Shown: piece by piece, positions 14,027 to 30,402 of the stretch
Layout: the number at the start of each line of letters is the position of its first letter
Position numbering within the stretch: the stretch's first letter is position 1
Source: Pseudoalteromonas translucida KMM 520
Lineage (GTDB): Bacteria > Pseudomonadota > Gammaproteobacteria > Enterobacterales > Alteromonadaceae
Direction of reading: 5' to 3'
NCBI RefSeq assembly: GCF_001465295.1
Contig: NZ_CP011035.1
Span: forward strand, 150,001-182,000
DNA: 32,000 nucleotides
Made by a program: the position numbers and the translations under genes
The notes under the pieces: generated by a model
Databases searched by the model: none
Told to the model about the DNA's origin: nothing
What the model saw: only the letters and a program-made list of their open reading frames with translations

Positions 14027-14150
14027 GAAACAACCTCAATCGGTGACGGTGGAGATAAAAATTTACGAGGACGAATTGTACACAATTCACTCAGCTTAAT
14101 CATTAAGTAAAACATTATAAGTTTACTGATTAATACCTTACATAATGACT

Positions 14151-14174: not shown

Positions 14175-14195
14175 CAATATGTTAACGAGTTCGAA

Positions 14196-14627: not shown

Positions 14628-14770
14628 CTTAATGCTCCAATAATTTTAAGTGAAAGTGTGAATATTAACGGGCGCGAATTATACGCGTTTTAACGTAAAA
14701 ATACTAATTATTATTAATAACCATCTTTGAATATATTTAGCAGGCTTTATTTATATTTTGTTTTGTGCGC

Positions 14771-16393
14771 TTACTGCGATTTTAATTTTGTTAAAATATA
14801 CTCAATTGCACTAGGGTTTTGAAAGGAGTTATGGCTCGATTTAACTATAATAGTCTCTTTAGCTTTGTCGTAATAAGCGCTAGGGTAGTCGACCACACTG
14901 TCGCTGATATTACTGCAATCATCGCTTGAATCGCAGATTAGACGATTAGTAGAGCCAATAATATTATACGCTTCTCCTTGCACGGGTAATGTGCCCAACG
15001 CATCCATTAAAGGGTGCCCTGGTCTGAGTACTTGTACGCTATTTGGACCATAATCTTTTAAAAAAGGCAGCATACCTTTAGTTAGTTTAGCTATGCCAAC
15101 CTTGTCGATAAGTGCTTTAAAAAGGCCAGTAAATTCCAGTGGCAAAGTAACCAAGGATGCCCCTATGTAGCCTAATGCTGAGCTGGCAATACTGGAGCCG
15201 CGATGTGGAGTATCTAAAAAGAATACACGGTTGTAGTTAAACACCGGCTCAAACACAAAAATATCTTTAATATCGCGTTGTTTTTCATTGAGTAGCAGTT
15301 CGGGTCTGTCAGTAAAAGTGGCGTCCCACAATGCGTAGTTGCTATTTGTTGTTAATGTTTTACTGATCACTCCGCCCATACTGTGGCCAATTATTGTTGC
15401 GCGCTCAAAGCCTTGTTTCCCGCTAGCAACTTGGCTCAGCTCACTAAGTAAATGGCGCACTCTCATGGCATTATAAAACGGTGGTGGGCCAGAGGGATAA
15501 TACACATGCCAAATTTGATAACGTTGGCTTAATACTGCATCATTTAATATGGCCATGGTTAAGTAACGCCAAATCAGTGGATCAGAATTTAAACCGTGGA
15601 TCATTACTAATGGTTCTTTGTCAGCAGTTAATTGGGCAAGTGAAAATATACCACGACGCTTTTCGGCTTCGCTGGCAGAGACAAAACCTAGCCAACTAAA
15701 TTGGTCTATGGTGGCATTTTCTAGCAGCATTAAAAAACTTGCTGCGGGTGAAAAACTTAATGCGTAGCGATTATTTCCTAAGCTAATTTCTTTGGTGTTG
15801 TTTTGTTGTTCAATATCTATGGTAACTAGGTAGGTTAAACCCTGTGTTTCAATTGTTTTTAACTTGGCATTATAGGCGCGGTAAATACCTTCTTCAGGAT
15901 AAAACTTGGCTTTTTGGTTGTCGGGCTGCTGCTTTTTTACTACTAAAGCAACACCCAACTCACCCAGTGTTTTAGCCGCAAGGCGTGGCTCTAAAGGTAA
16001 TAGGTTACTTACAAAGGTAAACTGTTTTTCACCGTTTATTGCAATTGAAACAAGATTTGACTGTGCGGGATCGCTTTTTAGTAGTTTATAAATAGAGCTG
16101 TTGTAGAGGCTCAGTGCATACGTTTTTAAATGAGGGGGTAATTGCGGCCTAGCCAACAGAGTTTGCGCGCATTGTAGGCTCAATACTAGGCCAATATCAG
16201 TATCATCACTCACGCTCAGACAATGGCTGTGTAACGCGCCTAGCGATAAGGGCGCTAAATTAGGTAAAACAGCATAGCCTAACGCGTTGCTAATTTGTGG
16301 CTGTTGTTCTTTAAATTGCAAAAAACGCCCAGATGAACAGCCATTGAGCATAATAAAAATTGCAGTAATAAAGAATAGTCGAACCATAATCAC
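14771..16393 (-). CDS. alpha/beta-hydrolase lipoprotein (lipase/esterase-like, GHSMGG nucleophile elbow)
   Basis: Lipobox LNGCSS. MIHGLNSD is an oxyanion-type HG motif and IIGHSMGG is a G-x-S-x-G motif. The N-terminal ~250 aa has no domain I recognise. Confidence 0.6.
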   Translation of the reverse strand: MIMVRLFFITAIFIMLNGCSSGRFLQFKEQQPQISNALGYAVLPNLAPLSLGALHSHCLSVSDDTDIGLVLSLQCAQTLLARPQLPPHLKTYALSLYNSSIYKLLKSDPAQSNLVSIAINGEKQFTFVSNLLPLEPRLAAKTLGELGVALVVKKQQPDNQKAKFYPEEGIYRAYNAKLKTIETQGLTYLVTIDIEQQNNTKEISLGNNRYALSFSPAASFLMLLENATIDQFSWLGFVSASEAEKRRGIFSLAQLTADKEPLVMIHGLNSDPLIWRYLTMAILNDAVLSQRYQIWHVYYPSGPPPFYNAMRVRHLLSELSQVASGKQGFERATIIGHSMGGVISKTLTTNSNYALWDATFTDRPELLLNEKQRDIKDIFVFEPVFNYNRVFFLDTPHRGSSIASSALGYIGASLVTLPLEFTGLFKALIDKVGIAKLTKGMLPFLKDYGPNSVQVLRPGHPLMDALGTLPVQGEAYNIIGSTNRLICDSSDDCSNISDSVVDYPSAYYDKAKETIIVKSSHNSFQNPSAIEYILTKLKSQ

Positions 16394-16660
16394 AGTGCTA
16401 AAAAATTATAAAAACAATATTAAAATCTACACCTTAGTCGTTATTTTCTCAAGTGTTAAACGTCTATTAACACATTAACTTGCCTGTTAGCATTTATAAT
16501 AAACATGATTTCTTCATGGCTAGTTACTGCTTTTAACGCTAAATGCTTAGTACATGATGCTGATCAATTATCCTTAAATTAATACTCTATATACTGCCGC
16601 GCTTTGCTATTTAATTATTCATGCAACTGGCTTGTAACCAGTTTTATGTATGGAGCGCTC

Positions 16661-18067
16661 ATGCTATCAACTACTGCTAACTCTTCAAAAAACACGCCGC
16701 CGTTTGCGTTTACCCCTGAACTATTATCGCCCGCGGGCAGCTTAAAAAACATGCGCTATGCCTTTGCCTATGGCGCCGATGCAGTATATGCAGGGCAGCC
16801 ACGCTATAGCTTAAGAGTGCGTAATAATGAGTTTGATCTTGAAACATTAAAAGTAGGCATAGATGAAGCGCATGCACTGAATAAAAAGTTTTATGTGGTA
16901 TCTAATATTGCGCCGCATAACGCTAAAGTTAACTCGTATTTACGCGACATTGAGCCGGTTATTGCTATGCAGCCCGATGCGCTGATCATGTCTGATCCGG
17001 GTTTAATTATGTTAGTGCGTGAAAAATGGCCGACTATGCCTATTCATCTATCGGTACAAGCGAATGCGGTAAATTACGCGAGTGTACAATTTTGGGCAAA
17101 ACAGGGGATTGAGCGAGTTATTTTATCGCGCGAACTGTCGCTAGAAGAGATTGCCGAAATACGCAGGCTTTGCCCAAATACCGAGCTGGAAATATTTGTC
17201 CATGGTGCCTTGTGTATGGCGTATTCTGGACGCTGTTTATTGTCGGGTTACATAAACAAACGCGATCCAAATCAAGGTACATGCACTAATGCTTGTCGTT
17301 GGGATTACGATGTAAAACCGGGCGTTGAAAACGAAACGGGCGAAATGGTACATAAGTTCGATCCTAAAAGTATCATACCTACGCTTGGTGAAGGCGCACC
17401 TAGCAGCGAAATAGTCATGTTAGAGGAGCAAGGTCGACCCGGTGAATATATGCCAGCTTATGAAGATGAGCATGGTACTTATATTATGAACTCAAAAGAT
17501 TTACGAGCAGTACAATATGTAGAGCAGCTTACCCAAATGGGCATACATAGCTTAAAAATAGAAGGGCGCACTAAGTCTTTTTATTATGTAGCACGCACCG
17601 CGCAGGTTTATCGCAAAGCAATTGATGACGCAGTAGCGGGTCGCCCGTTTGATACCAACTTATTTAAAACCTTAGAAAACTTAGCCCACAGAGGCTACAC
17701 CGAAGGCTTTTTAAAGCGCCATGCGCACCAAGACTATCAAAATTATGAATACGGCCATTCGGTATCAACTAAACAACAGTTTGTTGGCGAAGTGCTGGGT
17801 AGAGATGCTAACGGCTTAGTTGATATTGATGTAAAAAATAAGTTTTGTGTTGGCCATTCATTAGAGTTAATGACCCCACAAGATAATATTAGTTTTGTAC
17901 TTGAGCAGATGGAAAATAAAAAAGGTGAAAGTATTAGCGATGCTAAAGGTTCAGGCCATATTGTTAAAATAGCGCTGCCTCAAACGCTTGATTTAGCATA
18001 CGCTATTTTAATGCGTAATCTTGATGAGCATCAAGATACTCGTAATCCGTTTAAGCAAGCCGTTTAG
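16661..18067 (+). CDS. peptidase U32 family protein, YegQ/TrhP-like (tRNA 5-hydroxyuridine formation in E. coli)
   Basis: PELLSPAGSLKNMRYAFAYGADAVYAGQPRYSLRVRNNEF closely resembles the E. coli YegQ N-terminus. I prefer ATG 16661, which has GGAG at 16652-16655, over the TTG at 16604 used in the ORF track. Confidence 0.85.
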   Translation: MLSTTANSSKNTPPFAFTPELLSPAGSLKNMRYAFAYGADAVYAGQPRYSLRVRNNEFDLETLKVGIDEAHALNKKFYVVSNIAPHNAKVNSYLRDIEPVIAMQPDALIMSDPGLIMLVREKWPTMPIHLSVQANAVNYASVQFWAKQGIERVILSRELSLEEIAEIRRLCPNTELEIFVHGALCMAYSGRCLLSGYINKRDPNQGTCTNACRWDYDVKPGVENETGEMVHKFDPKSIIPTLGEGAPSSEIVMLEEQGRPGEYMPAYEDEHGTYIMNSKDLRAVQYVEQLTQMGIHSLKIEGRTKSFYYVARTAQVYRKAIDDAVAGRPFDTNLFKTLENLAHRGYTEGFLKRHAHQDYQNYEYGHSVSTKQQFVGEVLGRDANGLVDIDVKNKFCVGHSLELMTPQDNISFVLEQMENKKGESISDAKGSGHIVKIALPQTLDLAYAILMRNLDEHQDTRNPFKQAV

Positions 18068-18167
18068 AAATTACAGTTTGAATAAACAACACAAAATTAG
18101 TGCCTATAATAATTGATAAAAGCGGCTTTATTAGCGCTATGGTACTAAGGCTCAGTTATTAAAAAAC

Positions 18168-18205
18168 ATACTTTGCAGCGCTTTAGCTAAAGTGCTGCAA
18201 AGTAT
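18168..18205 (-). terminator. 38-bp near-perfect palindrome overlapping the last codons of the LysR gene
   Basis: atactttgcagcg ctttagctaaag tgctgcaaagtat forms a stem of about 19 bp with one G-T pair. On the minus strand it is followed by gtttttt (18161-18167). Confidence 0.55.
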
Positions 18206-19067
18206 AGTCTATTAGTAACCTCACACGATGAGGGATTTGTTTTCTGTCGCGATAAACCATAGAAAAAGGCTGCCCTTCACTTTGCCAGTCTGGAAGAATA
18301 CGCTCAAGCGTTCCAGACTCTATTAATGGCAATGCAATATAATCAGGTATATAACTAATGCCAACACCCGATTCTACGGCATGTTTCATTATTTGAATTT
18401 CATCAACTTCAAGCCTAATGTGTTTGTTTGGCTCAACGTTATACTCTTTATTAGTCAGCTTGTTTTTTAATTGCCACGGGGCTAATCCTAAGCAAATAAC
18501 TTTAGGTTGTTCTTCTAATTGCTCAGGGTGGGTAATTAAATGAGTGGTTTGGTTAGGGCGGCCACATATTATATTATGAGTGAGCTTCAACTCCCTAATA
18601 ACCCAATTATCAATAGCTGGGTTTCGTACTCTAAAGGCAATATCAATGCCTTTATTTTCGATATCAATTAAGTCATTTGAAAAACGTAAATCTAACTGTA
18701 TTTCTGGATATTGCAGTAAAAAATCACAAAAAATAGCGCTTAAAAAATGCTTGCCCATGTAAATTGGCGCAGAAATTCTAATTTTACCTTTTGGTTGCTG
18801 CTTCTCATCAGATAATGCTTGCTCTATGGCGTCTACTTCCTCAAACAGTTTGCAGTAACGAGCGTAATATAGCTCCCCTGTATGGGTTAATGTAACGCGA
18901 TGAGCGTCTCGATTAAGTAAGGTTAACTGTAGAGTTTGCTCCAATAAACGTATTCTGCGGCTTAAGGTTGATAATGATACATTTAGGCTTTCGGATGCTT
19001 TTTTAAAGCTACCTAATTTCACTATAGTGCAAAAATGACGTAAATCATCAAGAGAGTAATTAGGCAT
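18183..19067 (-). CDS. LysR-family transcriptional regulator
   Basis: N-terminal winged HTH (LRHFCTIVKLGSFKKASESLNVSLSTLSRRIRLLEQTL) and a C-terminal LysR substrate-binding fold. 294 aa. Confidence 0.9.
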   Translation of the reverse strand: MPNYSLDDLRHFCTIVKLGSFKKASESLNVSLSTLSRRIRLLEQTLQLTLLNRDAHRVTLTHTGELYYARYCKLFEEVDAIEQALSDEKQQPKGKIRISAPIYMGKHFLSAIFCDFLLQYPEIQLDLRFSNDLIDIENKGIDIAFRVRNPAIDNWVIRELKLTHNIICGRPNQTTHLITHPEQLEEQPKVICLGLAPWQLKNKLTNKEYNVEPNKHIRLEVDEIQIMKHAVESGVGISYIPDYIALPLIESGTLERILPDWQSEGQPFSMVYRDRKQIPHRVRLLIDYTLQHFS

Positions 19068-19167
19068 TATTAAAACCGCCTATCATATCAAAACTTAATA
19101 TTGTTGAAGTTAGGTTTAATCATAACAGCGGTGTTGTTAAATATCATTAGATGTTAAAAGTAGTGAT

Positions 19168-19194
19168 TTATAAAAGCGTTTTTAACTTTTATAA
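19168..19194. promoter_or_regulatory. candidate LysR-type operator (TTATAAAAG-N9-CTTTTATAA dyad containing T-N11-A)
   Basis: Perfect 9-bp inverted repeat with a 9-bp spacer, about 100 bp upstream of the LysR start codon. The AT-rich context raises the chance of coincidence. Confidence 0.3.
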
Positions 19195-20029
19195 ATACGT
19201 TGCGGCGAGTTTATTTTTTAAGGTTTAATTTGCAGCAGTGGCTTGAGCTTTTAAATAAAGCCGTGCCGAGTATATGTTATTGCCATAAATAGCCTATAGC
19301 GACGCATAAATACCAAACACGGATTGCCTTTCGGTTTCTGCCCAGAAGCTTGAGTAGTTTTTTAGCCCATTAGTTTAACCTATACAAATAAAGGCCTTGC
19401 GGCGATTTATATTGATTAAGATCAACAAAGCAACAGAGAAAAATAGGCATAATTCGCGGCTGTAATTTACACCCAAAAGTAAAACGGTGTGTTACGAATG
19501 TGTGCTACGATTTAATGAAAAACAAAGGTTTTGTATTGAACTGGGCTTGTATTAAAAACAGTCAGAAAACATTTTGTTTAACTCTATCTCTATGTTTAAT
19601 AATGATTTTAATTGAAGGGGCTTATGAGTGGCTTTACTTATAAATAGTAAATGCATTAACTGCGATAGTTATAAGGTTTTCAATTAAAGTCTTTAAAAAC
19701 AGGTTGTTACTTTGTCGTGCTATGGCTTGTGCTACGATTTTACGTAACTCGTTAGCACTTGGTTAGTATCTTAAAAGTAACTTAAAAAGGCAAATTGTAT
19801 TAACTAAAAAATTAAAAGCACAAACTTACTAAACAATTTACGGTGGAGATTAATTAGTTTTTTACCACTTCAGTTATTTAAATTTATTTAAGTCAAGCTG
19901 CCTAGTACTACCTAGTTTAAATTTTAAGAGTTTAACGTTCTCTTTGGAATAGCGATTCAATTTTAGGACTCTAAAAGGTATTTTAATTCAGTATTCGTTA
20001 TACAGGATTGAGTTTATCTATTAAGAATA

Positions 20030-20059
20030 TTGATTGATTAAGAGTGAATTAGGTATAAT
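20030..20059 (+). promoter_or_regulatory. candidate sigma70 promoter of the eight-gene operon (TTGATT-N18-TATAAT)
   Basis: The -35 element ttgatt is at 20030-20035 and the consensus -10 tataat is at 20054-20059. GGGAG SD (20072-20076) and TTG start (20084) lie downstream. Confidence 0.4.
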
Positions 20060-20083
20060 TCTCCTTTTACAGGGAGTAGTAAG

Positions 20084-20632
20084 TTGTCATTTCCTCAAGT
20101 ATCTGTCATCGGTAATGCTAAGATAAAATCGTCTCAATTACAGAATATGGCTGAGGCCGTAGGCTTAATTATTAATGATCTTTGCTTTCATCTGGTTTGT
20201 GGTGGTTTGGGTGGCGTAATGGAAGCCAGCTGTAAAGGGCATAAATCAGGGACTGAACCAAGTCAAACAATCGGTATACTTCCATCCTTTAAAGAGAGTA
20301 CAGCAAATAAGTACACAGATATTATTATACCATCTGGGTTAGATATTGGTCGTAATCAGCTAGTTGTCTCTAGCGGTTTTGCTGTTGTCGTTTTGGGTGG
20401 TGGTGCGGGGACTTTAAGTGAGATAGCTCTAGCATCCCAAATAAACAAGCCAATACTCTTGATTAAAGGTTCTGGAGGCTGGGCTGATAAATTGACCGAT
20501 GAGTATTTGGACCAACGTTGTAATTCAAAGCTTTATCATATTAGTAGTTTAGATGAGTTAAGAATAACGCTTCAAAAATTGTCTTTGCTTGAGTCAAAAA
20601 GTGGTTCCATAGACAGTGGCCATAATCGATGA
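20084..20632 (+). CDS. LOG / TIGR00725-like Rossmann-fold protein (SLOG superfamily; putative nucleotide N-glycosidase / phosphoribohydrolase-like)
   Basis: Motifs CGGLGGVMEA...IGILP and GGGAGTLSEI match the GGxxG(L/V)M and (P/G)GGxGTxxE signatures of LOG-family proteins. TTG start lies 7 nt after GGGAG. 182 aa. Confidence 0.65.
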   Translation: MSFPQVSVIGNAKIKSSQLQNMAEAVGLIINDLCFHLVCGGLGGVMEASCKGHKSGTEPSQTIGILPSFKESTANKYTDIIIPSGLDIGRNQLVVSSGFAVVVLGGGAGTLSEIALASQINKPILLIKGSGGWADKLTDEYLDQRCNSKLYHISSLDELRITLQKLSLLESKSGSIDSGHNR

Positions 20633-21597
20633 AATTACTCATCCCAATAAGTTACTTTTTCGGAAGTCCAAAAAGTGAGTTGTGGCAATTAGATACAGAG
20701 ACAAAGAAAAAGAGTTTATTAGCCACCCTACCTTCCTCTGAGAGAGATGTTGCTGGCAAAGGTTTTACCAGTGTTACATGGATTAGCAATGACTTGCTTG
20801 TGGGTTGTGATTTTAATCGTGTATTTATTATTGACCGTAAATTATGCGAGTTAAAAAAAATAAATACAGACGAACAATACAATGATTTACATCATGTTAG
20901 CTTTGATGGTCACTTCATTCATATAGCTAATACAGGGCGTGATTGTATCGATGTTTTAGACAATCAATTACAGCCTGTTAGCCGATTAGAGTTTCTTCCA
21001 ACAGAAGAAATATCATCAAGGATTAAAGGGGAATATAAACCTCAAGGTGATTATTACGATAATGAAGCGATAAAAGTTGATTTTCACCTACGTAAGGTGC
21101 CTGATGCTCTGCATGTCAATCATGTGATCACAGTGGGTAAAGAACTTGATAACAAAGTTATCGTAACAAGTTTTAAAAAAAAATGCTTAATTGACGCTAA
21201 AACTCTAGAGCCACTCAGTAATAAATTACCTGAACAACCCCATGATGGCTTTATCGACAAGAAGTATATTTGGATAACCACTGTTTCAGGGAAAGTGTTT
21301 CGTTCTAAGCTATCGCTACCTTTTAATTTTGAATTGTTTTTTGATCTATTTCGGGTAGCAAAGTTCAAAGGGTGGTGTCGAGGTTTATTAGTTGCTAATG
21401 ATGCTTTATTTATAGCGGTCACTGCTATTCATAAGGAAACTAATCGGACAAACTGGCTTAATAGTCCAGTAAAGAATACTCGCACGGGAGTTTATCAGAT
21501 CAATTTAGCTTCATTGGATATTGAACACTTCTATGATTTTAGCCACACAAACGGTTCCCGTATATTTTCATTAGTCAGTGATAATTTTGATGGATAA
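20629..21597 (+). CDS. hypothetical protein, probably beta-rich/propeller-like (faint resemblance to DUF4915/TIGR03032-type proteins)
   Basis: 322-aa ORF. Its ATG overlaps the upstream TGA (ATGA at 20629-20632). Repeated hydrophobic beta-strand-like blocks. FKGWCRGLLVANDALFIAVTAIHKE resembles the G(F/W)xRGLxF...S..RE block I recall from TIGR03032. Not verifiable here. Confidence 0.5.
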   Translation: MKLLIPISYFFGSPKSELWQLDTETKKKSLLATLPSSERDVAGKGFTSVTWISNDLLVGCDFNRVFIIDRKLCELKKINTDEQYNDLHHVSFDGHFIHIANTGRDCIDVLDNQLQPVSRLEFLPTEEISSRIKGEYKPQGDYYDNEAIKVDFHLRKVPDALHVNHVITVGKELDNKVIVTSFKKKCLIDAKTLEPLSNKLPEQPHDGFIDKKYIWITTVSGKVFRSKLSLPFNFELFFDLFRVAKFKGWCRGLLVANDALFIAVTAIHKETNRTNWLNSPVKNTRTGVYQINLASLDIEHFYDFSHTNGSRIFSLVSDNFDG

Positions 21598-22387
21598 GAA
21601 ACCAAGGATTTACATGTTTCATCGTGTTCTTAAAAATTACGATGAAAAGAACTATTACTATCAGCGACAAACAGGCATTAGCTGGAAGAAGTTCATCGAA
21701 CTGCTTGATACTATAGAGAAAAAAGGCTGGAAAACTAAGCCAATTTCTGCTTTGGCGAAAGGATATACACATAACGATGTATTTATTACTTTCGATGACG
21801 GATATAGGGATAATATTTGTGCATTTGATGAATTAATTAATCGTGGAATGATTGCTACAGTTTACCCTGTTAAAGATTTTGTTTTAGATGGTTTTTCTCC
21901 GATTGATGATATGGCTCTTCACTTGATGTCGACACCGAATGTACCTAAAGACCTTAGTCTATCATTGCTCGGTGGGCGATTAAAAAGAATATTACGAGGC
22001 ATAACAGCCTCGAGATATAGGTATCTCCGACAACGTTTGTTTGGCATAGATGTGGATGCGGATTCTACCCATTTATTTATGCAGGAGCATCATCTAAAAC
22101 TGTACAATAGCCAAGGAATTGAACTGGGTATTCACGGGTGTAGCCACAGAGCATTTACCCAACTTTCTCCAAGTGAGCTAAATAAAGAGTTAACTGAAAA
22201 TTATAATTGGATCAGAGGATTGGGATGTAGAGAATCGATGTCTATTTGCTTCCCTCATGGTAAAAATAATAAGAAAGTAATTGAGCAAAGCCAGCTATTT
22301 GGCTTAATTCATTTAGGTGTCGACTGTGAGACATTTTACCCATCAGTTTTAAGGAGAATACATATTACGGAAGATTATTGTGGGTGA
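21590..22387 (+). CDS. polysaccharide deacetylase family protein (NodB homology / CE4)
   Basis: YMFHRV..., FITFDDGYRDN (the TFDDG metal/catalytic motif), and LGIHGCSH (His motif). ATG 21590 overlaps the upstream TAA (21595-21597). The track start, GTG 21578, is also possible. Confidence 0.75.
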   Translation: MDKKPRIYMFHRVLKNYDEKNYYYQRQTGISWKKFIELLDTIEKKGWKTKPISALAKGYTHNDVFITFDDGYRDNICAFDELINRGMIATVYPVKDFVLDGFSPIDDMALHLMSTPNVPKDLSLSLLGGRLKRILRGITASRYRYLRQRLFGIDVDADSTHLFMQEHHLKLYNSQGIELGIHGCSHRAFTQLSPSELNKELTENYNWIRGLGCRESMSICFPHGKNNKKVIEQSQLFGLIHLGVDCETFYPSVLRRIHITEDYCG

Positions 22388-23060
22388 ACTTAATGCTAAG
22401 CTTTGCGCATTGCTCAAGAATCAATTAGAGACTTTTCCATTTCACAATTTAGGGCAGTTATTGGGGAAGAAGGTTATTAATGGGGGGACTTGTTTTGATC
22501 ACGCACTAAGCTTGCGCGCTCATATAACTAAAATGGGGCTTAGCGCTACATTACATGAGGCTGAGGTTTGCATGACAGGTTTAAACTCACATCGTTTGAT
22601 CCGAGTTGAATCTTCAGACAAGGTTAGCTTTTTAGATTCTGGCACGGGCTGGCCAACTATATATCAGGCTCATACTTGCGATATCTATCGAGAGTATACA
22701 TCAGCAGGAATACGCTTTCGAATTGTTAAAGAGTCAAACAAGCTTCTTGTCAAACGACACGATGGTCGACAATGGCGTGATATGAACCGTATTGCATTAG
22801 TCGCTCAAAATGAAGAGATTATATTATCCAAATACCCTAACAGGTATCTCCAACAACTGCCTTACAGCCAAGAACTTCGGTTTTGCTGGCTAATGAATGA
22901 AAAGTTTTATCGAATTACAGGTTTCTGTTTAGCAGTATATGAAGCAGGAAAAAATACTCAAAAATTCAGTCTAACACCGATAGAGCTTTTGAGTTTTGTC
23001 CAGAGCAGCTTTCCCGAATTGATTTCGGACTTAAAAATATATCTAGAGAGTATTAGTTGA
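22380..23060 (+). CDS. arylamine N-acetyltransferase (NAT)-like Cys-His-Asp acyltransferase/amide synthase
   Basis: FPFHNL resembles the NAT PFENL motif. NGGTCFDHAL resembles RGGYCFELN with the catalytic Cys. SHRLIRVE carries a candidate His and FLDSGTGWP resembles DVGFG with the Asp. GTG start overlaps the upstream stop. At 226 aa it is shorter than classical NATs. Confidence 0.55.
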   Translation: MGELNAKLCALLKNQLETFPFHNLGQLLGKKVINGGTCFDHALSLRAHITKMGLSATLHEAEVCMTGLNSHRLIRVESSDKVSFLDSGTGWPTIYQAHTCDIYREYTSAGIRFRIVKESNKLLVKRHDGRQWRDMNRIALVAQNEEIILSKYPNRYLQQLPYSQELRFCWLMNEKFYRITGFCLAVYEAGKNTQKFSLTPIELLSFVQSSFPELISDLKIYLESIS

Positions 23061-24544
23061 TGTGCGGGTTTGTTGTAAGTGTCACTGAAGGACAATCTAA
23101 TTTAAATAAGAAAGTAGGAAAGGATACTCTATCTCGGGGCGAAGACCATTCTAGCTTAGAAACTATTCATTTTAATGGAATACCTATACATTTTGAATTT
23201 TCGCATTTATTTATAACTTCTCCCCAAGTTGTTCAACCACTACAAAGTATGTCGAAAATTTTAGTACTGAATGGTGAGATATATAATTATCAAGAATTGG
23301 CTGAGATACTTGGTCTCGAATCAAATAAGTTTAATGATGTAGGTATTTTTTTTGAGTATATAGAGCGTTACGGTTTGACTCAGGCCATGACGATGGCAAA
23401 TGGAATGTACTCTGGTGTTCTTTTCGATAAATCAACGGGAGATTTTAGAGTTTTTACAGATCATGTTGGTAAAAAGCCTTTGCTCGTTTGGAATAGTAGT
23501 ATCGGATGGCATATAGGAACTGGCGTTGATACTAATTATATAGATGCATACACTAATACGTTAGATGTAATCTCCCCTGGAGTATCAAAGTTTGATATAA
23601 AAACTGGGGTAGTATGCAAAGAATACCTCCATCAATACACTGTGACCAATAAACGAAGATTTGTTGATATTATAGAAAGTGCTATAGCACTTCGAATTCC
23701 TAAGGATATCCCATTCGCTGTAGCTTTAAGTGGTGGGCTAGATAGTTCGATTATTGCTTATATTTTAGAGACAAGATTAAGCAAAAGTGCAAGATATTAC
23801 GTCGTGGCTGACAGTTATCCCGATTCAGTTTTGACGTTATTAGAACATCTAAAGGTTTGTCCTAGTCGTGTCGTTTTAATTAAGCCACCGACACAAAGTG
23901 AGCTCTTAGGATTAATTAAAAAAACATGTAAAATTACAAAAAGCTACAACCCTTCAATTATATCAAATGGACTAGCAACATTATTATTAAGTAGGGCTGT
24001 ACAAGAAGACGGTATCCGCGTTTTGTTATCAGGTGAAGGTGCAGATGAGTATTTCTGTGGTTATCAAGGAATGTATAATGGTCGTAATGACCCTGAGAAA
24101 ATGAGAGCTTGTTTGATTGAAAACCTCCATTACACGGAATTGAGACGCTTAGATCTTATTACTGCCAGCCATAGTATAGAGGCTCGTTGCCCATTTTTAG
24201 ATAATCGCGTCACTCAGTTTGCATTAGCACATGACGTTCAAGATCTTTGCGACATTTCTTTGAACGTGGGAAAAACAATACTAAGAGATACATTTAAACA
24301 TGTATTACCCAACTCAATAATTCATGCTCCTAAAGAGCCTTTCGATATTACCTCAGGTTTGCAAAAAATGGTTATAGATGAATTAAAGAAAATATCTACG
24401 ACAGAAAGAACAGCATTAAGATCCATTTTTGAACAAATTATGGATAACACTTCTATAGCTAATCATCATTACTTCTCCCATTACCCAACTTTTGACACGA
24501 TGATTGAACGACGTGAGCTTAAATACAAGCAGAGGGATATATGA
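23060..24544 (+). CDS. asparagine synthetase (AsnB)-family amidotransferase/amide ligase
   Basis: MCGF N-terminus (Cys2 nucleophile), LNGEIYNYQEL, PP-loop ALSGGLDSSI, LLSGEGADEYFCGY and EARCPFLD. ATG 23060 overlaps the upstream TGA (TGATG). The track start TTG 23057 would put an extra Met before Met-Cys. Confidence 0.85.
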   Translation: MCGFVVSVTEGQSNLNKKVGKDTLSRGEDHSSLETIHFNGIPIHFEFSHLFITSPQVVQPLQSMSKILVLNGEIYNYQELAEILGLESNKFNDVGIFFEYIERYGLTQAMTMANGMYSGVLFDKSTGDFRVFTDHVGKKPLLVWNSSIGWHIGTGVDTNYIDAYTNTLDVISPGVSKFDIKTGVVCKEYLHQYTVTNKRRFVDIIESAIALRIPKDIPFAVALSGGLDSSIIAYILETRLSKSARYYVVADSYPDSVLTLLEHLKVCPSRVVLIKPPTQSELLGLIKKTCKITKSYNPSIISNGLATLLLSRAVQEDGIRVLLSGEGADEYFCGYQGMYNGRNDPEKMRACLIENLHYTELRRLDLITASHSIEARCPFLDNRVTQFALAHDVQDLCDISLNVGKTILRDTFKHVLPNSIIHAPKEPFDITSGLQKMVIDELKKISTTERTALRSIFEQIMDNTSIANHHYFSHYPTFDTMIERRELKYKQRDI

Positions 24545-24549
24545 ACGAT
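24542..24549. repeat. target-site duplication, left copy (TGAACGAT)
   Basis: Identical 8-mer at 26955-26962, immediately outside both IS termini. An 8-bp duplication is the IS66-family norm. Confidence 0.9.
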
Positions 24550-24573
24550 GTAAGCGTCTGAGCAAATGCGTCT
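24550..24573. repeat. IS66 terminal inverted repeat (tnpC-proximal end)
   Basis: Begins GTAAGCG, as is typical for IS66-family ends. About 21 of 25 positions match the other end, with one indel. It contains the tnpC stop codon. Confidence 0.8.
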
Positions 24574-26134
24574 AGCCTTGATTAACATTCCAAGGTAGCA
24601 AGTGCTCTACACTTTCAGGCTTTTTAGCAAGCTCATCTAGGCAGGTTTGCAAATAGTTGTCGACCAACAGTCCGTTCGCTTTCGCGGTTTCAATAATACT
24701 ATAGAGCACGGCGCTAGCCGTTGCACCCCGCGCGGTATTGGAGAATAACCAGTTTTTTCTGCCAATCACAAACGGTTTCACAGCCCGCTCAGCGCGATTG
24801 TTATCTATATTTATGCGACCATCTTTTAAATAGGTGATGAGCTTATGTTCTTGGTTACACCAATACGTAATCGCTTCACCAAGTTTACTTTTCGGTGGCA
24901 CTTTATCTTTATTTTCGATAATCCAATGGTGAAGTTTATCGATGATGGGTTTTGAACTTTCCTGCCGTGCTTGATACGTTTCTGCGGCCGTTTTGTCTTT
25001 TAAGCTTGCCTCAATGCCGTAGAGTTTTCTAATAAGACTTAAGGCAACATCGGCTTTGCCGGTTTTGTTTTTCGTTTGCACCGTTTTCGCATCAATGAAT
25101 TTTCGACGTGCATGCGCCATACAACCTGCCAATATTGCATCTGTTTTTCCGTACGCTGCATAACCATCGACTTGCAGGTAACCGTCATAGTCACCAAGGT
25201 AATCAACTACACAAGCTGCGGCACGAGAGTTGTGATAATCATAGAGGATAATATTTGGCAAACTATTGGCGGCCACCGAATCGCTACCACAACAATACAC
25301 CCACATGTAACTGCTGCTATTATCGGCCTTAATCACCTTTAAGGGCGTTTCGTCGGCATGGAGCACCGCTTGACTAAGCAATGCTGCTTTTAGCTCGTTA
25401 ACTAATGGCATCAGTAATTCACTACACCGTATTATCCAATCTGACATGGTTTTACGACTCAGCTCAATACCATACTCATTGAACATTTTTTCTTGCCTAT
25501 ATAGCGGCAACCCATATTGATATTTGGCGCTGATGATTTGACTCAGCAAACTACTGGTGGCAATGCCTTTAGGAATGGGGGTTGCTGGAACAGGTGCAAC
25601 TTTTATAGAATTTTCTGTGCCAGTTTGCTCACACCTTTTACAGGCATATTTCGGTCGAACTGTCTCTATCACTTTGATGTACGCAGGAACAAACTCAAGT
25701 TTTTCACTACGAGCTTCACCAATTTTATGCAGCTTACCTTGGCAACAATCACACACTTTTTCATCAATGGACAAATCAATTGTCACCACTTTTCGAGGTA
25801 ATTCTTTTGGCAGTGGCTTGCGCGTCGGTTTGTTTTTAATTGTGACCTTACTGTGACTATCAGCCGCAGCTAATAACGTTTTATCGGCCTCATCAATGAT
25901 TTCTTCCGCTTCATTGAAGGTTTCCCCCGCCCCCGGGAGTTGCTCGGAGCTTTTACCAAACTGTTTACGCTTGGCAATTTCATAGCGTTCAATAAACTGA
26001 TTAATTTGAATGGCTTGTTCACTGATGATTTTATCTTTTTTCGCTAACTCTTGGGTAGTTTCAGCCTGCAACTCAAGCAACATTTGCTTGAGTTGTTCTG
26101 GGTCGTCAGGGAGTGAGTTAGTATCAATTTTCAT
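24572..26134 (-). CDS. tnpC: IS66-family transposase (TnpC/Orf3)
   Basis: 520 aa. N-terminal coiled coil/leucine zipper, zinc-finger-like CDCCQGKLHKIG...CKRCE, a central DDE region (HADETPL..., VDGYAAY) and a conserved C-terminus. Confidence 0.92.
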   Translation of the reverse strand: MKIDTNSLPDDPEQLKQMLLELQAETTQELAKKDKIISEQAIQINQFIERYEIAKRKQFGKSSEQLPGAGETFNEAEEIIDEADKTLLAAADSHSKVTIKNKPTRKPLPKELPRKVVTIDLSIDEKVCDCCQGKLHKIGEARSEKLEFVPAYIKVIETVRPKYACKRCEQTGTENSIKVAPVPATPIPKGIATSSLLSQIISAKYQYGLPLYRQEKMFNEYGIELSRKTMSDWIIRCSELLMPLVNELKAALLSQAVLHADETPLKVIKADNSSSYMWVYCCGSDSVAANSLPNIILYDYHNSRAAACVVDYLGDYDGYLQVDGYAAYGKTDAILAGCMAHARRKFIDAKTVQTKNKTGKADVALSLIRKLYGIEASLKDKTAAETYQARQESSKPIIDKLHHWIIENKDKVPPKSKLGEAITYWCNQEHKLITYLKDGRINIDNNRAERAVKPFVIGRKNWLFSNTARGATASAVLYSIIETAKANGLLVDNYLQTCLDELAKKPESVEHLLPWNVNQG

Positions 26135-26230
26135 CCATCGAGTTTAGCAAGAACAGACAGATGATTCTGCTTTGTAACGCAAATAGAATAAGGACTTGCG
26201 TACACGATCGTTGACTGATAAAAGATCTAG

Positions 26231-26578
26231 TTAGATCGGTGACTGATAGTGCAGCGGTTCATGGCCAAGCACGTCATATCCAGATAACAACCAATCCAGT
26301 TGTTGATAGGTTAATTCAAATTCCTGGCTCGATAGTTTACTTGGCCATTTGAATTTTTGCTTTTCAAGTCGTTTATACCAAAGCGCGAACCCTGTTTTAT
26401 CCCAGTATAGAATTTTCAGCTTATCTTTGGCCTTGTTACAAAATACAAACAACGTACCGGTATAGGCATCGCGAACAAGCTCATCTTCAACAATACTCAC
26501 TAAGCCATTAATACTTTTTCGAAAGTCGACAAAATCCCGATGCAGAAAAACCTCTGACGGCTCAACAAACATTTTCAT
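26231..26578 (-). CDS. tnpB: IS66 Orf2 (TnpB) accessory protein
   Basis: 115 aa. DFRKSINGL...LFVFCNK..DKLKILYWDK.GF.LWYKRLEK.KF.WP is the characteristic IS66 TnpB sequence. Confidence 0.9.
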   Translation of the reverse strand: MKMFVEPSEVFLHRDFVDFRKSINGLVSIVEDELVRDAYTGTLFVFCNKAKDKLKILYWDKTGFALWYKRLEKQKFKWPSKLSSQEFELTYQQLDWLLSGYDVLGHEPLHYQSPI

Positions 26579-26874
26579 TGAACAAACTCGCGTAGTAACT
26601 GGCTTAAATACGTTGCAGAGGTTGTGGCTGGCAAACTAACGTTTGCCTTGCCAACAGTTAACGTGATGGATGGTTGTTCATCAACTATTTCGACTTGCTG
26701 TGTAATTTTGGCGCGAACGAAATTATTCGATGATAGGCCGAGTTTCTTTCTTACCGCATAAAAGCTAGTCATTGATAATTGATGTTGCCGGCAATAATCA
26801 ATGATGGTTAAACCACTTGATTGTTGTTCATGGATGATGGTTTGCCATTGCTCTGGGCTGCGCATAATTCTCAT
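26575..26874 (-). CDS. tnpA: IS66 Orf1 (TnpA), small HTH protein
   Basis: 99 aa. W..II.EQ..SGLTI..YCRQH.LS...FY.W..K motif. Its stop overlaps the tnpB start (ATGA at 26575-26578). Confidence 0.8.
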   Translation of the reverse strand: MRIMRSPEQWQTIIHEQQSSGLTIIDYCRQHQLSMTSFYAVRKKLGLSSNNFVRAKITQQVEIVDEQPSITLTVGKANVSLPATTSATYLSQLLREFVQ

Positions 26875-26890
26875 AAGTTACTCCAAATAA

Positions 26891-28204
26891 TTGTTTGGTT
26901 GTAACTTACTTAAGTTGAGATTAATTTGTCAGACGCAATTTGCCGGACGCTCACTGAACGATAATCAAGTGGTTGCAGTCGTTGGGCTAGGGTATGTCGG
27001 GTATCCGCTTGCAATAGCATTTGGTCAGCATATCCAAACAGTAGGTTTTGACATAAACGAAACTAGAATCTCTGAATTACATGAAAGTAATGATCGCACC
27101 AATGAAAGCGATATTAAGTTAGTTGAAAGTGCTGAGCATTTAACTTTGTCTAATGATCTAGAGTGTATTCGAAGAGCGAATATATATATTGTCACTACAC
27201 CTACTCCAGTTGATAAGGCATACCAACCAGAGTTAAGTGCGGTATTGAATGCTGCAAAGATGGTTGGCTCTGTGATTTCAACTAACGATATTGTTGTCCT
27301 AGAATCTACAGTATATCCTGGTGTTACAGAGGGAGTGTTTGCTTCTGAAATTGAAAAAACAAGTGGATTGCTTGCAAATATTGACTTTCAGCTAGGGTAC
27401 AGTCCTGAGCGGATTAATCCAGGAGATGAGCTTCATTGCTTACAACATATAGTAAAGGTTGTTTCTGCCACAAATACATCTACTTTAGAAATATTATCTC
27501 AATTATATGAACTTATAGTTCCTGCTGGAGTGTTGAAAGCTGAGTCAATAAGAACAGCTGAGTTATCTAAGTTAATAGAAAACACCCAGCGTGATGTTAA
27601 TATTGCATTTATAAACGAAATGTATCAGCTATCGGACAAGCTGAAATTAGATTTTAACAAGGTATTAGAATGCGCCAGTAGTAAGTGGAATTTTCTAGAC
27701 TTTAAACCTGGGTTAGTTGGTGGACACTGCGTTGCTGTTGATCCGTATTACTTAATTCATTCTCAGGTTATGAATGGAGTTGCACCTCGTATAACAAATA
27801 CAGCACGGCAAGTTAACGGGGATATGGTTACTTACGTTGCAAATACATTTTTGAAAAAGTTAATTAGGGCTGGCCTTTCACTACCTTCCACAAGAATATT
27901 AATCTTGGGTGTGAGTTTTAAACCCAACTGCCCTGACGTTAGAAACTCTAAACATTTTGAAGTTATAAGAGAATTGATAGATTTTGGAGCAAAGCCACTT
28001 ATTTACGACCCAGTTGTTAAGTGGGAAGATACCCAAAACTGCATTGTTGAAGAACAAATGCCTACAGGCCCTTTTGATGCGATATTGTTGCTTGTACCTC
28101 ATGATGAAATTGTTCGCGATTTACTACTCAAGGGGGCCTCTCTGATACATGAAAACACCATCTTCTTCTCTTTAGACTCACAATATACAGATTTACTAAA
28201 ATGA
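26891..28204 (+). CDS. nucleotide-sugar 6-dehydrogenase (UDP-GlcNAc/ManNAc/GalNAc dehydrogenase type, TviB/WbpO/WecC-like); native start removed by the IS66 insertion
   Basis: Rossmann VAVVGLGYVGYPLAIAF, catalytic-Cys block GGHCVAVDPYYL and the ELSKLIENTQRDVNIAF block. The first 21 codons of the track ORF (TTG 26891) are IS66 end sequence. The ancestral start is ATG 24541, leaving ATG-AAC-GAT left of the IS. At the right junction the equivalent codon is CTG (26954-26956). The next in-frame GTG is at 26969. Confidence 0.85.
   Translation: MFGCNLLKLRLICQTQFAGRSLNDNQVVAVVGLGYVGYPLAIAFGQHIQTVGFDINETRISELHESNDRTNESDIKLVESAEHLTLSNDLECIRRANIYIVTTPTPVDKAYQPELSAVLNAAKMVGSVISTNDIVVLESTVYPGVTEGVFASEIEKTSGLLANIDFQLGYSPERINPGDELHCLQHIVKVVSATNTSTLEILSQLYELIVPAGVLKAESIRTAELSKLIENTQRDVNIAFINEMYQLSDKLKLDFNKVLECASSKWNFLDFKPGLVGGHCVAVDPYYLIHSQVMNGVAPRITNTARQVNGDMVTYVANTFLKKLIRAGLSLPSTRILILGVSFKPNCPDVRNSKHFEVIRELIDFGAKPLIYDPVVKWEDTQNCIVEEQMPTGPFDAILLLVPHDEIVRDLLLKGASLIHENTIFFSLDSQYTDLLK
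26931..26954. repeat. IS66 terminal inverted repeat (tnpA-proximal end)
   Basis: The reverse complement matches 24550-24573 (see the mobile_element entry). Confidence 0.8.
26955..26962. repeat. target-site duplication, right copy (TGAACGAT)
   Basis: Identical to 24542-24549. Confidence 0.9.
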
Positions 28205-29043
28205 CTATAGAATTAACAGAATATAATAAATTCATCTCTATGGCCTCAATTGTTGGGGATTCCCTAGGTAATAAAAATGCTATTGATTTTGTCACTAGCT
28301 TCCTTGAAGGTTTAGGCTTCGATATTCGGATTTCAAATACTAAACATACAGCTCAGCCAACAATAATAGCGCACTATTCAGGACGATTATGTGATAAAAA
28401 AATAGTCATTTATGGTCATTATGATGTTGCACTAGTGAAAAGTGAGAATAATTGGCTCAGTGAAAACCCATTCTTATTAAAACGTATCAACGGTCGTATT
28501 TATGGACGAGGAATAGCCGATAACAAGGGGCCTCTGTTATCCCGGATGCTCGCTATGAAATCATTAATATCATCGAAAAAAGCAATCCCTGAAATTATGT
28601 GGTTAATTCAAGGTGAGGAAGAAATTATGCATGGGAATAGAGTTGCCTATGATATTTTTAAGCATGAGATAAGTTCATTTGGTGCAAATACTTACATTGA
28701 GGAAACAGGATTTAATAATTTAGATACAGGATCTCAAATTGCATTTCTATGGTCGCCTTCTCTGACTGATTTACAGTTATCTTCGTGGCATGATTTACTA
28801 AATCACAGCTTGGATAATCCGAATATCGAATATCGTCATCTAAATAAGCTAAATGGAATCAAAGCTTGTCCTCTTCTAGCCAATTTGCCCAAAGACTCTG
28901 TTTATATCGGTTTTGGTCCTAATGATCGCTTGCATAATATCCATCAAGACAATGAATCATTAGATGAGAGTAATCTTTTAAAGCACCAAAAACAATTTGA
29001 AAATTTTTTAGCAAATTATGCGTCGTATAGCCATGCAGTCTAA
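28201..29043 (+). CDS. M20-family metallohydrolase-like protein (ArgE/DapE/ACY1 type), short form apparently lacking the lid/dimerisation domain
   Basis: IYGHYDVA...W...PF...NGRIYGRGIADNKGP, IQGEEEI and C-terminal LHNIHQDNESLD correspond to the M20 metal-ligand blocks. It is only 280 aa. ATGA overlap with the upstream gene at 28201-28204. Confidence 0.65.
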   Translation: MTIELTEYNKFISMASIVGDSLGNKNAIDFVTSFLEGLGFDIRISNTKHTAQPTIIAHYSGRLCDKKIVIYGHYDVALVKSENNWLSENPFLLKRINGRIYGRGIADNKGPLLSRMLAMKSLISSKKAIPEIMWLIQGEEEIMHGNRVAYDIFKHEISSFGANTYIEETGFNNLDTGSQIAFLWSPSLTDLQLSSWHDLLNHSLDNPNIEYRHLNKLNGIKACPLLANLPKDSVYIGFGPNDRLHNIHQDNESLDESNLLKHQKQFENFLANYASYSHAV

Positions 29044-30280
29044 CAACATCATTAACGTGGTATTGGCCAGTGCTGATATAGATGTGGCAAACAGTCTGTT
29101 GAAAAGCATGCATCAAGCGTTACCTAGTTTTGAGATTAAAGCGTCCATCTTATTATTTGGTATAACAGAACCAAGAAAAATTTATCAGTTTTGTCGTCCA
29201 GTTGAAATAATAGATATAGTTACGTACTACCCACCTATTGTGGATAGTCGAAATATCTGCCAAGCACACCTTCGTCGTAAAATGAACGAATTTGGGGGAA
29301 TAGGATTTATACTTGATGATGATTTATCTTGGACACTACCTGAAAATGAATTTATTACTGTGCTTGAAAAATTGAAAAAAGCGGGCTGTGATATGGCTTT
29401 TAGTGCGCTATCAGGTGATTCACCTATCCCAAAGGAATATACTCGAACAAGCCCCTTACTCGATGTTTTGATAGCCATTGCAGTCCAATGTAATGACTCT
29501 AAGGCTATGAAAATAAAAGAGTATGTTACAAAGGTAGATATATCGAAAAAAAGCGAAAGTAATATTAATACTCATCATGACTTTTATACTTTTACCCATA
29601 AAGAATTTCATAAATATGATGTGGATATAGCAACTATCAATTGGCATGATTTCATCGATCGATTAGTAAAGGGTAAATCTACAACCCGAACTACACCAAC
29701 ACCAATTACAATAATGCCAGCAAAAGGAAGAGAGCGGGGTGGTGCAACACTTATACTAAATGTTGATGTATTACTTTGTAAAAATGATTCAATGCGCTAT
29801 TTGAATTTATATAGTCGCCGCAGTGATATGATTATGGCAACGGATGCTGCGAATTATAACTTTAAACTATTTAATACCCCGCCTATGTTAAAACACCTTA
29901 GAGATGAAGCATTTGATACCCATGACAGTAAAAAGTTAATAGGCGATATCCTTGGGTATGCACTTGTTGAATCTAAAGAAGGAGCTAATTTTTGCGCGAA
30001 AAAATTTGCGAAAAACGTATCTCAACGAATTGAACATACAAAATTTTTACTTATGGAATCATCAAAAATGATGGAGTTACTAGATGTATGGTTAAAAAAT
30101 AACAATTATATTGAATTGGATGTAAGTAGCTTGGTTAAATCCATGATTGCAGAAAATGAGAAAACTTACTTAGCGCTTACATCCATTGACTTAGGAGTTG
30201 TTAATCAGTCTTTCAACACATTTATTTATAATAGAATTAACTATTTAAAGTCTGATGAAAGTACTGAGCTAGCTTGTTAG
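29033..30280 (+). CDS. hypothetical protein; N-terminal region has GT-A-like features (beta-strand start plus DxD), C-terminal ~250 aa unknown
   Basis: The start INVVLASADID... and GFILDDDLSW about 100 aa in resemble a GT-A glycosyltransferase DxD core. This is weak, by-eye evidence. ATG 29033 or ATG 29018 overlaps the upstream TAA (29041-29043). Confidence 0.5.
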   Translation: MQSNNIINVVLASADIDVANSLLKSMHQALPSFEIKASILLFGITEPRKIYQFCRPVEIIDIVTYYPPIVDSRNICQAHLRRKMNEFGGIGFILDDDLSWTLPENEFITVLEKLKKAGCDMAFSALSGDSPIPKEYTRTSPLLDVLIAIAVQCNDSKAMKIKEYVTKVDISKKSESNINTHHDFYTFTHKEFHKYDVDIATINWHDFIDRLVKGKSTTRTTPTPITIMPAKGRERGGATLILNVDVLLCKNDSMRYLNLYSRRSDMIMATDAANYNFKLFNTPPMLKHLRDEAFDTHDSKKLIGDILGYALVESKEGANFCAKKFAKNVSQRIEHTKFLLMESSKMMELLDVWLKNNNYIELDVSSLVKSMIAENEKTYLALTSIDLGVVNQSFNTFIYNRINYLKSDESTELAC

Positions 30281-30402
30281 TATTTCGTTCCTCAGAATAA
30301 ATGCCTTTTAGGGATCATTAAGCTGCATTCTAGGCCTTAAAGTGACTTATTGGTCACTTTAACTACCGTCGGTTATATCAAAAAAGTTAAGTGTTTTTTT
30401 AC

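Follow-up and report, generated by a model that had tools for sequence, protein, structure and literature searches.

A mobile operon led by an SLOG-family gene in Pseudoalteromonas translucida: a proposed pathway to a sugar-decorated nucleobase-type product

It is proposed that an eight-gene operon of Pseudoalteromonas translucida KMM 520 is a mobile, wholly cytoplasmic cassette for a small-molecule pathway that makes a sugar-decorated product of nucleobase type; for the scheme as a whole this is a tentative proposal, held at somewhat short of even confidence. The operon lies in a 32,000-nucleotide stretch of contig NZ_CP011035.1 (positions 150,001 to 182,000, forward strand), which is called the window here and supplies the coordinates given for this strain. 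Its coding regions overlap or touch, and the first of them (20084..20632, + strand) encodes a protein of the SLOG superfamily that a preliminary description of the same DNA had taken for a possible base-releasing enzyme at the head of the operon. The leading position is confirmed, since the stop codon of this gene overlaps the start of the next. The interest lies in the whole cassette and not in the SLOG gene alone.

The SLOG gene encodes 182 amino acids from a TTG start codon, with the ribosome-binding site GGGAG 8 nt 5' of it and a sigma70-like promoter (TTGATT-18-TATAAT, 20030..20059, +) that is a consensus match only, with 10/12 matching positions in a consensus scan. The reading frame is real and related to LOG, as had been supposed: it scores above the cutoffs of both PF18306 (LDcluster4, SLOG cluster 4; E 1.2e-31, 109.9 bits, cutoff 26.3) and NCBIfam TIGR00725 (107.1 bits, cutoff 106.9), the latter narrowly, and is a member of this TIGR00725/PF18306 family and not of canonical LOG. 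Searching 5.8 billion proteins gave 1680 homologues at E<=1e-5, the nearest being annotated TIGR00725 family proteins from Pseudoalteromonas (95% identity) and marine metagenomes; our literature search found no publication on the function of SLOG cluster 4 (TIGR00725/PF18306). The nearest solved structures are Thermotoga TM1055 (1rcu) and the molybdenum cofactor (Moco) carrier proteins 6y01 and 2iz5, which the subfamily profile matches at E 6e-27 to 8e-20 (6y01 7e-25, 2iz5 8e-20), LOG enzymes being more distant. In an alignment of 37 subfamily members the LOG-type motifs CGGLGGVM (39-46), R90 and GGGAGTLSE (105-113, ending in E113) are invariant, and profile alignments place R90 and E113 on the catalytic Arg and Glu of the LOG enzymes 5zi9 and 5wq3. 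The check for these two residues, which the preliminary description had called for, thus finds both present and invariant in the subfamily; alone, they do not show that the protein is an enzyme. The C-terminal tail (window 20570-20632) was compared among the cassette-linked proteins of loci L001-L010, L017, L023, L034, L040 and L081. It is conserved as G-x-I-N/D-S-G-H-N-R in gammaproteobacteria, with a terminal Arg invariant in that subfamily, and is D-I-G/D-S-G-F/W-R-like in the Myxococcota cassettes; Clostridia TIGR00725 proteins outside cassettes carry another conserved tail, Y-H-K-G-I. The tail might serve as a lid or a docking peptide, or conceivably as an acceptor.

The last gene of the operon (29018..30280, +) encodes a 420-aa protein with no Pfam match, whose profile also found no match among PDB sequences. 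It had been noted as a DxD protein and possible transferase, and structure modelling confirms this: an AlphaFold2 model built from 53 homologues (pLDDT 90.4) retrieves GT2-type GT-A enzymes as all of its top Foldseek matches (hyaluronan synthase, BcsA, TarP and WrtF, E ~1e-6), a DDD motif at 100-102 (D100-D101-D102) is invariant together with nine Arg, and the C-terminus forms a helical bundle. Judged by this model, the protein is a GT-A fold glycosyltransferase of a new family; no published description of this family or of the cassette was found in the literature. Its HMMER profile, run against 1.84 billion representative proteins, matched only 263 clusters at E<=1e-3, of which 29 are cassette-type, and in many of the non-cassette clusters the GT-A is a single domain within a giant protein. 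Myxobacterial proteins of 467 and 780 aa aligned with the profile in hhalign at a low probability of 16-20%, with the invariant motifs aligned, and their homology was later backed by phmmer and tblastn. The GT-A was not found in plasmid and phage collections or in IMG/VR viral contigs, so carriage by phages or plasmids is unsupported.

Two kinds of evidence tie the SLOG protein to this glycosyltransferase. The first is fusion. According to Pfam scans, giant cytoplasmic proteins of 1799-2161 aa from a Bacilli metagenome-assembled genome (MAG) and from metagenomic sequences (L067 5159-10558, L041 5042-10549, P0236 and P0301) carry a GT2 domain, the GT-A, a methyltransferase and a further glycosyltransferase-like segment and have SLOG cluster 4 as their C-terminal domain; Wolinella has the same fusion split into two adjacent genes beside pheA and lysA. 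Fusions of this Rosetta-stone type indicate that SLOG cluster 4 and GT-A act together. The gene for the giant protein of L067 adjoins a phage-type integrase.

The second is displacement. Protein P0232 (1054 aa) consists of GT-A, GTP cyclohydrolase II (GCHII), NADAR and arylamine N-acetyltransferase (NAT) domains, and a second cluster, P0306, also joins GT-A to GCHII and NADAR. P0232 is the first gene of a sister cassette, L091 (GCA_900180405.1, 5170-13185), together with a PhyH-type dioxygenase resembling that of Marinobacter, a 216-aa kinase-like protein, a CE4 deacetylase, a beta-propeller and an N-acetylhexosamine (HexNAc) dehydrogenase; orthologues of the propeller (E 3e-95), dehydrogenase (1e-109), CE4, NAT and GT-A of the window are thus present, and no SLOG or M20 gene was found within 10 kb. 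NCBI labels P0232 as a riboflavin enzyme (DHBP synthase/GTP cyclohydrolase II), a label that is probably misleading. GTP cyclohydrolase II yields 2,5-diamino-6-ribosylamino-pyrimidinone 5'-phosphate. NADAR/COG3236 proteins are reported in two papers (PMC11125620 and PMC6793443, both citing Frelin 2015) to be N-glycosidases for the first riboflavin intermediates, in some bacteria fused to RibA. The slot of SLOG, and of M20, is therefore held in L091 by an enzyme pair, GCHII, which opens the ring of a nucleotide, and NADAR, an N-glycosidase releasing an aminopyrimidine base; no other evidence at hand speaks as strongly for SLOG as the supplier of a free base. Base release by SLOG, the central suggestion of the preliminary description, is accordingly an idea that fusion and displacement together support and do not prove.

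Of the remaining partners, the CE4, NAT-like, AsnB-like, dehydrogenase and M20 enzymes had been listed correctly from the outset. Hydrophobic segments resembling a membrane span or signal peptide are absent from all eight proteins. The second gene (20629..21597, +) starts within the SLOG stop codon (ATGA) and encodes a 322-aa beta-propeller, weakly DUF4915/TIGR03032-like, which adjoins SLOG in 22 loci. Its AlphaFold2 model (pLDDT 93.6) matched only generic propellers in Foldseek and its profile matched no PDB sequence; invariant His, Asp and Asn residues suggest a metal or active site. The CE4 deacetylase (21578..22387, +; 269 aa, PF01522 6e-12) has no signal peptide and retains the metal and catalytic motifs TFDDGY and HGCSH (HxxxH). 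It is followed by an acyltransferase of the arylamine NAT fold (22380..23060, +; 226 aa, PF00797 1e-10) with a candidate Cys-His-Asp triad (GGTC..., ...SHRL..., ...LDSG...) and the arylamine NATs 2bsz and 4nv7 as its nearest PDB relatives, and by an AsnB-like glutamine-dependent amidotransferase (23057..24544, +; 495 aa, PF00733 6e-39 with GATase_7 and GATase_6) with an N-terminal MCG nucleophile and an SGGLDSS PP-loop, nearest in the PDB to 1ct9 and scoring under the equivalog cutoffs for AsnB. The nucleotide-sugar 6-dehydrogenase (26957..28204, +; TIGR03026, 338.6 bits) was identified rightly as such, yet it is of the HexNAc type (Cap5O/TviB) rather than the UDP-glucose type and is dispensable in several variants of the cassette; its best equivalog-type match is TviB (359.6 bits, under the cutoff of that model), and its nearest PDB relatives are Cap5O and UDP-ManNAcA/GalNAcA dehydrogenases. 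The short M20 metallohydrolase (28201..29043, +; 280 aa, PF01546 2e-16) falls ~100-200 residues short of the length of the DapE/ArgE and dipeptidase proteins that it matches, and is nearest in the PDB to M20 carboxy- and dipeptidases and DapE.

From these assignments we infer the following chemistry. The SLOG protein would work as LOG phosphoribohydrolases do, binding a substrate of the ribonucleoside-5'-phosphate type and cutting its N-glycosidic bond, and the base set free would be a heterocycle with an aromatic amine. The GT-A may then use this base, or something closely derived from it, as the acceptor for an N-acetylhexosamine or its uronic acid taken from a UDP-sugar, the dehydrogenase presumably making the uronic acid in hosts that do not make it themselves. 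The AsnB-like enzyme would amidate a carboxylate, the CE4 enzyme would remove the N-acetyl group of the sugar, and the arylamine-NAT-like enzyme would re-acylate an amine. PF00797 enzymes characteristically acylate aromatic amines, and this substrate preference fits an aminopurine or aminopyrimidine aglycone. The short M20 hydrolase might take off an acyl or aminoacyl group, possibly to activate the compound, and the propeller would have an accessory role.

The cassette is mobile. A block at 19627..30289 (+) shares 95-96% DNA identity with Pseudoalteromonas sp. NEC-BIFX-2020_002 (locus L001); blastn matches cover 19627-24549 and 26955-30289, and the flanks of the two genomes are unrelated. A metagenome copy free of the insertion sequence (IS) described below, L094, is 97% identical to the window cassette, the shared sequence running to 30513, where the L094 contig ends. 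Upstream, sequence is shared from 19627 with the L001 copy and from 20009 only with L094, which points to a mosaic 5' boundary of the mobile block. Between a divergent LysR gene and the operon lies ~1 kb of non-coding AT-rich DNA (19068-20083, ~31% GC); Rfam gave no RNA family in the conserved region upstream of the operon. No tRNA was found in the window, and no flanking repeats at the ends of the block.

Pseudoalteromonas, Spongorhabdus and several metagenome contigs all carry the eight genes in this order. Variants without the dehydrogenase are found in Arsukibacterium, in L084-L086 (contigs whose GT-A is assigned by NCBI to Colwellia psychrerythraea) and in L090, L002, L108 and L109, and in Marinobacter (L008) and a Gammaproteobacteria MAG (L088) one or more PhyH-type dioxygenases replace both AsnB and dehydrogenase. 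Strongly diverged yet recognisable cassettes exist in Myxococcota and Bacteroidota; the order in Kofleriaceae is PhyH, small kinase-like protein, M20, PhyH, NAT, GT-A, SLOG, propeller and CE4. The constant core thus comprises SLOG, CE4, NAT, M20 and GT-A, usually with the propeller, and SLOG is its most constant member. AsnB with or without the dehydrogenase, PhyH, an epimerase and the kinase-like protein look like alternative tailoring modules, a pattern typical of small-molecule pathways. Cassette partners accompany about a quarter of the 80 TIGR00725 loci sampled in species-representative genomes, and no other neighbour family recurs across lineages. In four of the dehydrogenase-less cassettes (L084, L085, L090 and L095) an extra gene of ~730 aa, with a weak UPF0102 (endonuclease-like) match, directly follows the GT-A (L090 16625-18817, L084 3500-4732, L095 11269-13446); it is absent from L002, L108 and L109, and could be an additional component or effector.

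In KMM 520 itself the operon is interrupted. The IS element noticed in the preliminary description belongs to the IS66 family (tnpA, tnpB and tnpC; 24550..26954, - strand; DDE_Tnp_IS66 6e-102 and TnpB_IS66 in Pfam), and its 8-bp target duplication TGAACGAT is found at 24542-24549 and 26955-26962, next to imperfect inverted ends (GTAAGCGTC... and ...GACGCTCAC). Comparison of the junctions with the intact one of L001, where the stop codon of AsnB and the start codon of the dehydrogenase overlap in ATGA, places the insertion after codon 3 of the dehydrogenase gene. The native ATG (24541-24543) now lies left of the element, and a hybrid reading frame (26891-28204) begins at a TTG inside the IS66 end and continues in the same frame through the dehydrogenase sequence. 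Apart from this, the last three genes (dehydrogenase, M20 and GT-A) are intact, but 2.4 kb of antisense DNA separates them from the operon promoter. The insertion is probably recent, and because of this separation the pathway probably no longer works in KMM 520.

The genomic neighbourhood was read at nine cassette loci with annotated flanks and at the sister cassette L091. None of them carries glycan genes (flippase, polymerase, ABC exporter or initiating transferase). Six of the nine independent gammaproteobacterial contexts adjoin known or defence-like genes, a count that has no proper genome-wide background; the systems met are BREX (twice), Ssp, Zorya II, CRISPR I-C, type I restriction-modification and a DruE-like helicase. 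Thus L001 has HipA and the type I restriction-modification protein HsdM as neighbours, L002 a WYL/BrxR-like regulator and SspB/SspC (PADLOC SspC E = 0), and L003 ZorA/ZorB-like proteins, ZorE (1e-139), a DEAD helicase and TacA. PglZ, BrxL, TniQ and type I-C Cas7/Cas8c/Cas5 lie directly upstream in L087 (633-5040); in L089 (5953-9907) PglZ and BrxL stand in the same orientation as the cassette, the last BrxL fragment ending 94 bp before SLOG, with an integrase downstream. L108 has a DEAD/MZB helicase of >2100 aa, UvrD and DUF932; the STAND NTPase and BrnT of L088 and the AlpA and SNF2/NOV_C helicase of L109 are suggestive, and L090 is not in a defence context. PADLOC matches among the flanking genes comprise BrxL, PglZ, SspC, ZorE and Cas8c. 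The cassette therefore reads as a resident of defence or mobility islands, and this residence makes it plausible that its product serves in conflict with phages or other mobile elements. The adjacency to BREX in L087 and L089 is open to both readings, a functional link or mere co-location in an island.

Carried further, the location would make the cassette a new kind of enzymatic system, of six to eight enzymes, directed against phages or other mobile elements, which we regard as unlikely. Its product would be a glycosylated, amide-tailored nucleobase analogue made from a cellular nucleotide and acting as an antiviral or as an abortive-infection toxin, a conjecture to which we give the same low credence, and at a similarly low level of belief the SLOG cluster 4 N-glycosidase and the GT-A family would form the invariant heart of the system.

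Several findings weigh against a base-releasing SLOG, the small-molecule pathway built on it, or its role in defence. The SLOG protein scores under the cutoffs of the canonical LOG models (PF03641 20.8, cutoff 27; TIGR00730 31, cutoff 96.35; NF058542 23.9, cutoff 300). The equivalents of R90 and E113 are kept also in non-enzymatic Moco carrier proteins, so the two residues do not prove catalysis. The fusion of GCHII with NADAR is seen in two clusters only, and NADAR also hydrolyses ADP-ribosyl-guanine in DNA (PMC11125620), so that the displacement in L091 could reflect another shared activity. No export, resistance or regulatory gene was found in the cassette. L091 lies outside any defence island, and the cassette proteins have no significant match in PADLOC-DB 2.0, that of AsnB to LmuA (0.006) being at chance level. 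A control on 111 flanking open reading frames at seven non-cassette TIGR00725 loci also gave PADLOC matches, to a C5-methyltransferase and SMC-like proteins; because this control is not clean, family counts are unusable as background, reliance was placed on hallmark systems, and the association with defence is a qualitative one.

Doubtful, and still to be taken seriously, is the explanation that SLOG is a non-catalytic ligand binder, like a Moco carrier or the SLOG sensor domain of Thoeris ThsA, which scaffolds or regulates the other enzymes and releases no base; it would hold a nucleotide signal, the end product or an intermediate that bears a phosphate. It would account for the Moco carriers 6y01 and 2iz5 being the best PDB matches after TM1055, a point that also tells against base release, as well as for the scores below the LOG cutoffs; the conserved tail with its invariant terminal Arg resembles an interaction or lid element, and the gene is translationally coupled to that of the propeller. 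But L091 fills the SLOG slot with two enzymes and no binding protein, the equivalents of the LOG catalytic residues are all invariant in the subfamily, and Moco biosynthesis or molybdoenzyme genes, which the Moco version of this explanation would lead one to expect, occur at none of the cassette loci examined.

The defence context invites a different explanation, in which the cassette enzymes attach a tailored aminosugar to DNA, RNA or a protein, for self-marking or to target phages, and SLOG recognises or processes a nucleotide or nucleic-acid target, much as DprA-type SLOG proteins bind DNA and NADAR works on modified guanine in DNA. We consider this quite unlikely. GT-A enzymes that glycosylate DNA bases exist, the base J glucosyltransferase among them; the islands place the cassette beside the modification-based BREX and Ssp systems, and the nine invariant Arg of the GT-A suggest a polyanionic substrate. 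The replacement of SLOG in L091, NADAR, moreover belongs to a family of DNA guanine-ADP-ribose hydrolases (PMC11125620). Within the cassette, however, there are no nuclease, helicase or DNA-binding domains and no conserved restriction-like effector, the ~730-aa gene being confined to the four loci named above; the GCHII domain between GT-A and NADAR speaks for a small substrate derived from GTP, and the set of CE4, NAT, M20 and AsnB or PhyH is typical of small-molecule pathways.

Remodelling of peptidoglycan precursors, suggested by AsnB-like amidation of meso-diaminopimelate, a DapE-like M20 and a PdaA-like CE4, was considered separately and rated low because SLOG, GT-A and NAT are constant and AsnB is dispensable.

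Highly improbable, finally, is the alternative already raised in the preliminary description, that the operon tailors an amidated, N-acyl-exchanged HexNAc-uronic nucleotide sugar of the WbpO/WbpS type for a surface glycan assembled elsewhere, with SLOG as a passenger or odd one out: the dehydrogenase is indeed of the TviB/Cap5O HexNAc type, AsnB-like amidotransferases amidate uronic acids in O-antigens and pairs of CE4 and acyltransferase perform N-acyl exchange on sugars. The idea is disfavoured because the cassette lies in a glycan locus at none of the nine annotated loci or L091, its flanks being occupied for the most part by genes of defence systems or mobile elements. Each of the eight proteins is soluble, and what the cassette can do without is the dehydrogenase and AsnB; SLOG, as the most constant member and one fused to GT-A elsewhere, is no passenger.

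In the rest of the window, positions 1-19067 hold core genome genes (der/engA, bamB, a TPR_21 protein gene, hisS, ispG, rodZ, a TPR-LysM protein gene, rlmN, ndk, a U32 peptidase gene and LysR), so the cassette borders on a conserved stretch of housekeeping genes. Downstream of it are two open reading frames (30634-31026, 130 aa; 31335-31673, 112 aa) with no match in Pfam, NCBIfam or PADLOC, and a perfect 15-nt palindrome at 31327-31357.

The sugar-decorated nucleobase scheme gives TIGR00725/SLOG cluster 4, a family with >1600 homologues and no known enzymatic function, a concrete and testable role alongside a rare glycosyltransferase family, and the fusion and displacement name candidate substrates: nucleoside monophosphates, the GTP cyclohydrolase II product, and UDP-HexNAc or its uronic acid. 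If location reflects function, Gram-negative marine bacteria would possess in the cassette an immune pathway that works through several enzymes and a small molecule, and were the anti-phage reading true, chemical defence would extend past viperin-type nucleotide analogues and Streptomyces secondary metabolites. The cassette could also yield new nucleoside-like bioactive compounds. For annotation, an apparent sugar-tailoring operon is not by default a lipopolysaccharide or capsule locus.

Among known systems, the LOG (LONELY GUY) cytokinin riboside 5'-monophosphate phosphoribohydrolases and PpnN-type nucleotide nucleosidases (PF03641/TIGR00730) share with the window protein the SLOG Rossmannoid superfamily, the GGxxGxM loop, R90 and E113, and their reaction, from nucleoside-5'-phosphate to base and ribose-5-phosphate, is the one proposed here. 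Unlike them, the SLOG of the window has a distinct C-terminal tail and belongs to the separate family TIGR00725/PF18306, and its operon carries a glycosyltransferase and amide tailoring rather than cytokinin or nucleotide-salvage genes. The Moco carriers of Chlamydomonas (2iz5) and cyanobacteria (6y01) and TM1055 (1rcu) share its motifs, the Arg and Glu included, but the carrier proteins are non-enzymatic and carry a pterin phosphate cofactor.

The preliminary description had compared the operon with the gougerotin and blasticidin pathways. In the hexopyranosyl-cytosine pathways (blasticidin S, mildiomycin, gougerotin and amicetin) the base set free by an N-glycosidase is the acceptor for a glycosyltransferase that uses a UDP-(uronic) sugar, and amide tailoring follows, the enzymes being a 2'-deoxyribosyltransferase-like CMP hydrolase and a glycosyltransferase of another family (CGA synthase). 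Set against these pathways, the cassette has the same formal logic and is not known to have an enzyme family in common with them; its hosts are Gram-negative marine bacteria and not Streptomyces, its dehydrogenase is of the HexNAc type, it resides in defence islands and it has no resistance or export gene, so the specific analogy is not upheld. For amicetin, where a NAT-like amide synthase acting on cytosine would be a precedent, no usable paper was found, and the case is not used as evidence.

Another comparison is with the directed-overflow N-glycosidase of riboflavin biosynthesis (COG3236/NADAR-RibA), with which L091 shares the GCHII and NADAR that would yield free triaminopyrimidinone, and in plant vicine biosynthesis the pyrimidine derived from the GTP cyclohydrolase II product is then glycosylated. 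The window cassette differs from these routes in having SLOG and M20 instead of GCHII and NADAR, with no riboflavin genes nearby, and in its sugar-tailoring enzymes, to which they offer no counterpart. The NodABC system, for its part, has no counterpart of SLOG, M20, AsnB or the dehydrogenase, and the acyltransferase of the cassette, unlike that of Nod, has the arylamine-NAT fold and its glycosyltransferase lacks a membrane segment; common to both is the logic of a GT2-like transferase, a CE4 deacetylase (NodB) and an N-acyltransferase in company, which implies N-acyl exchange on a GlcNAc-derived unit.

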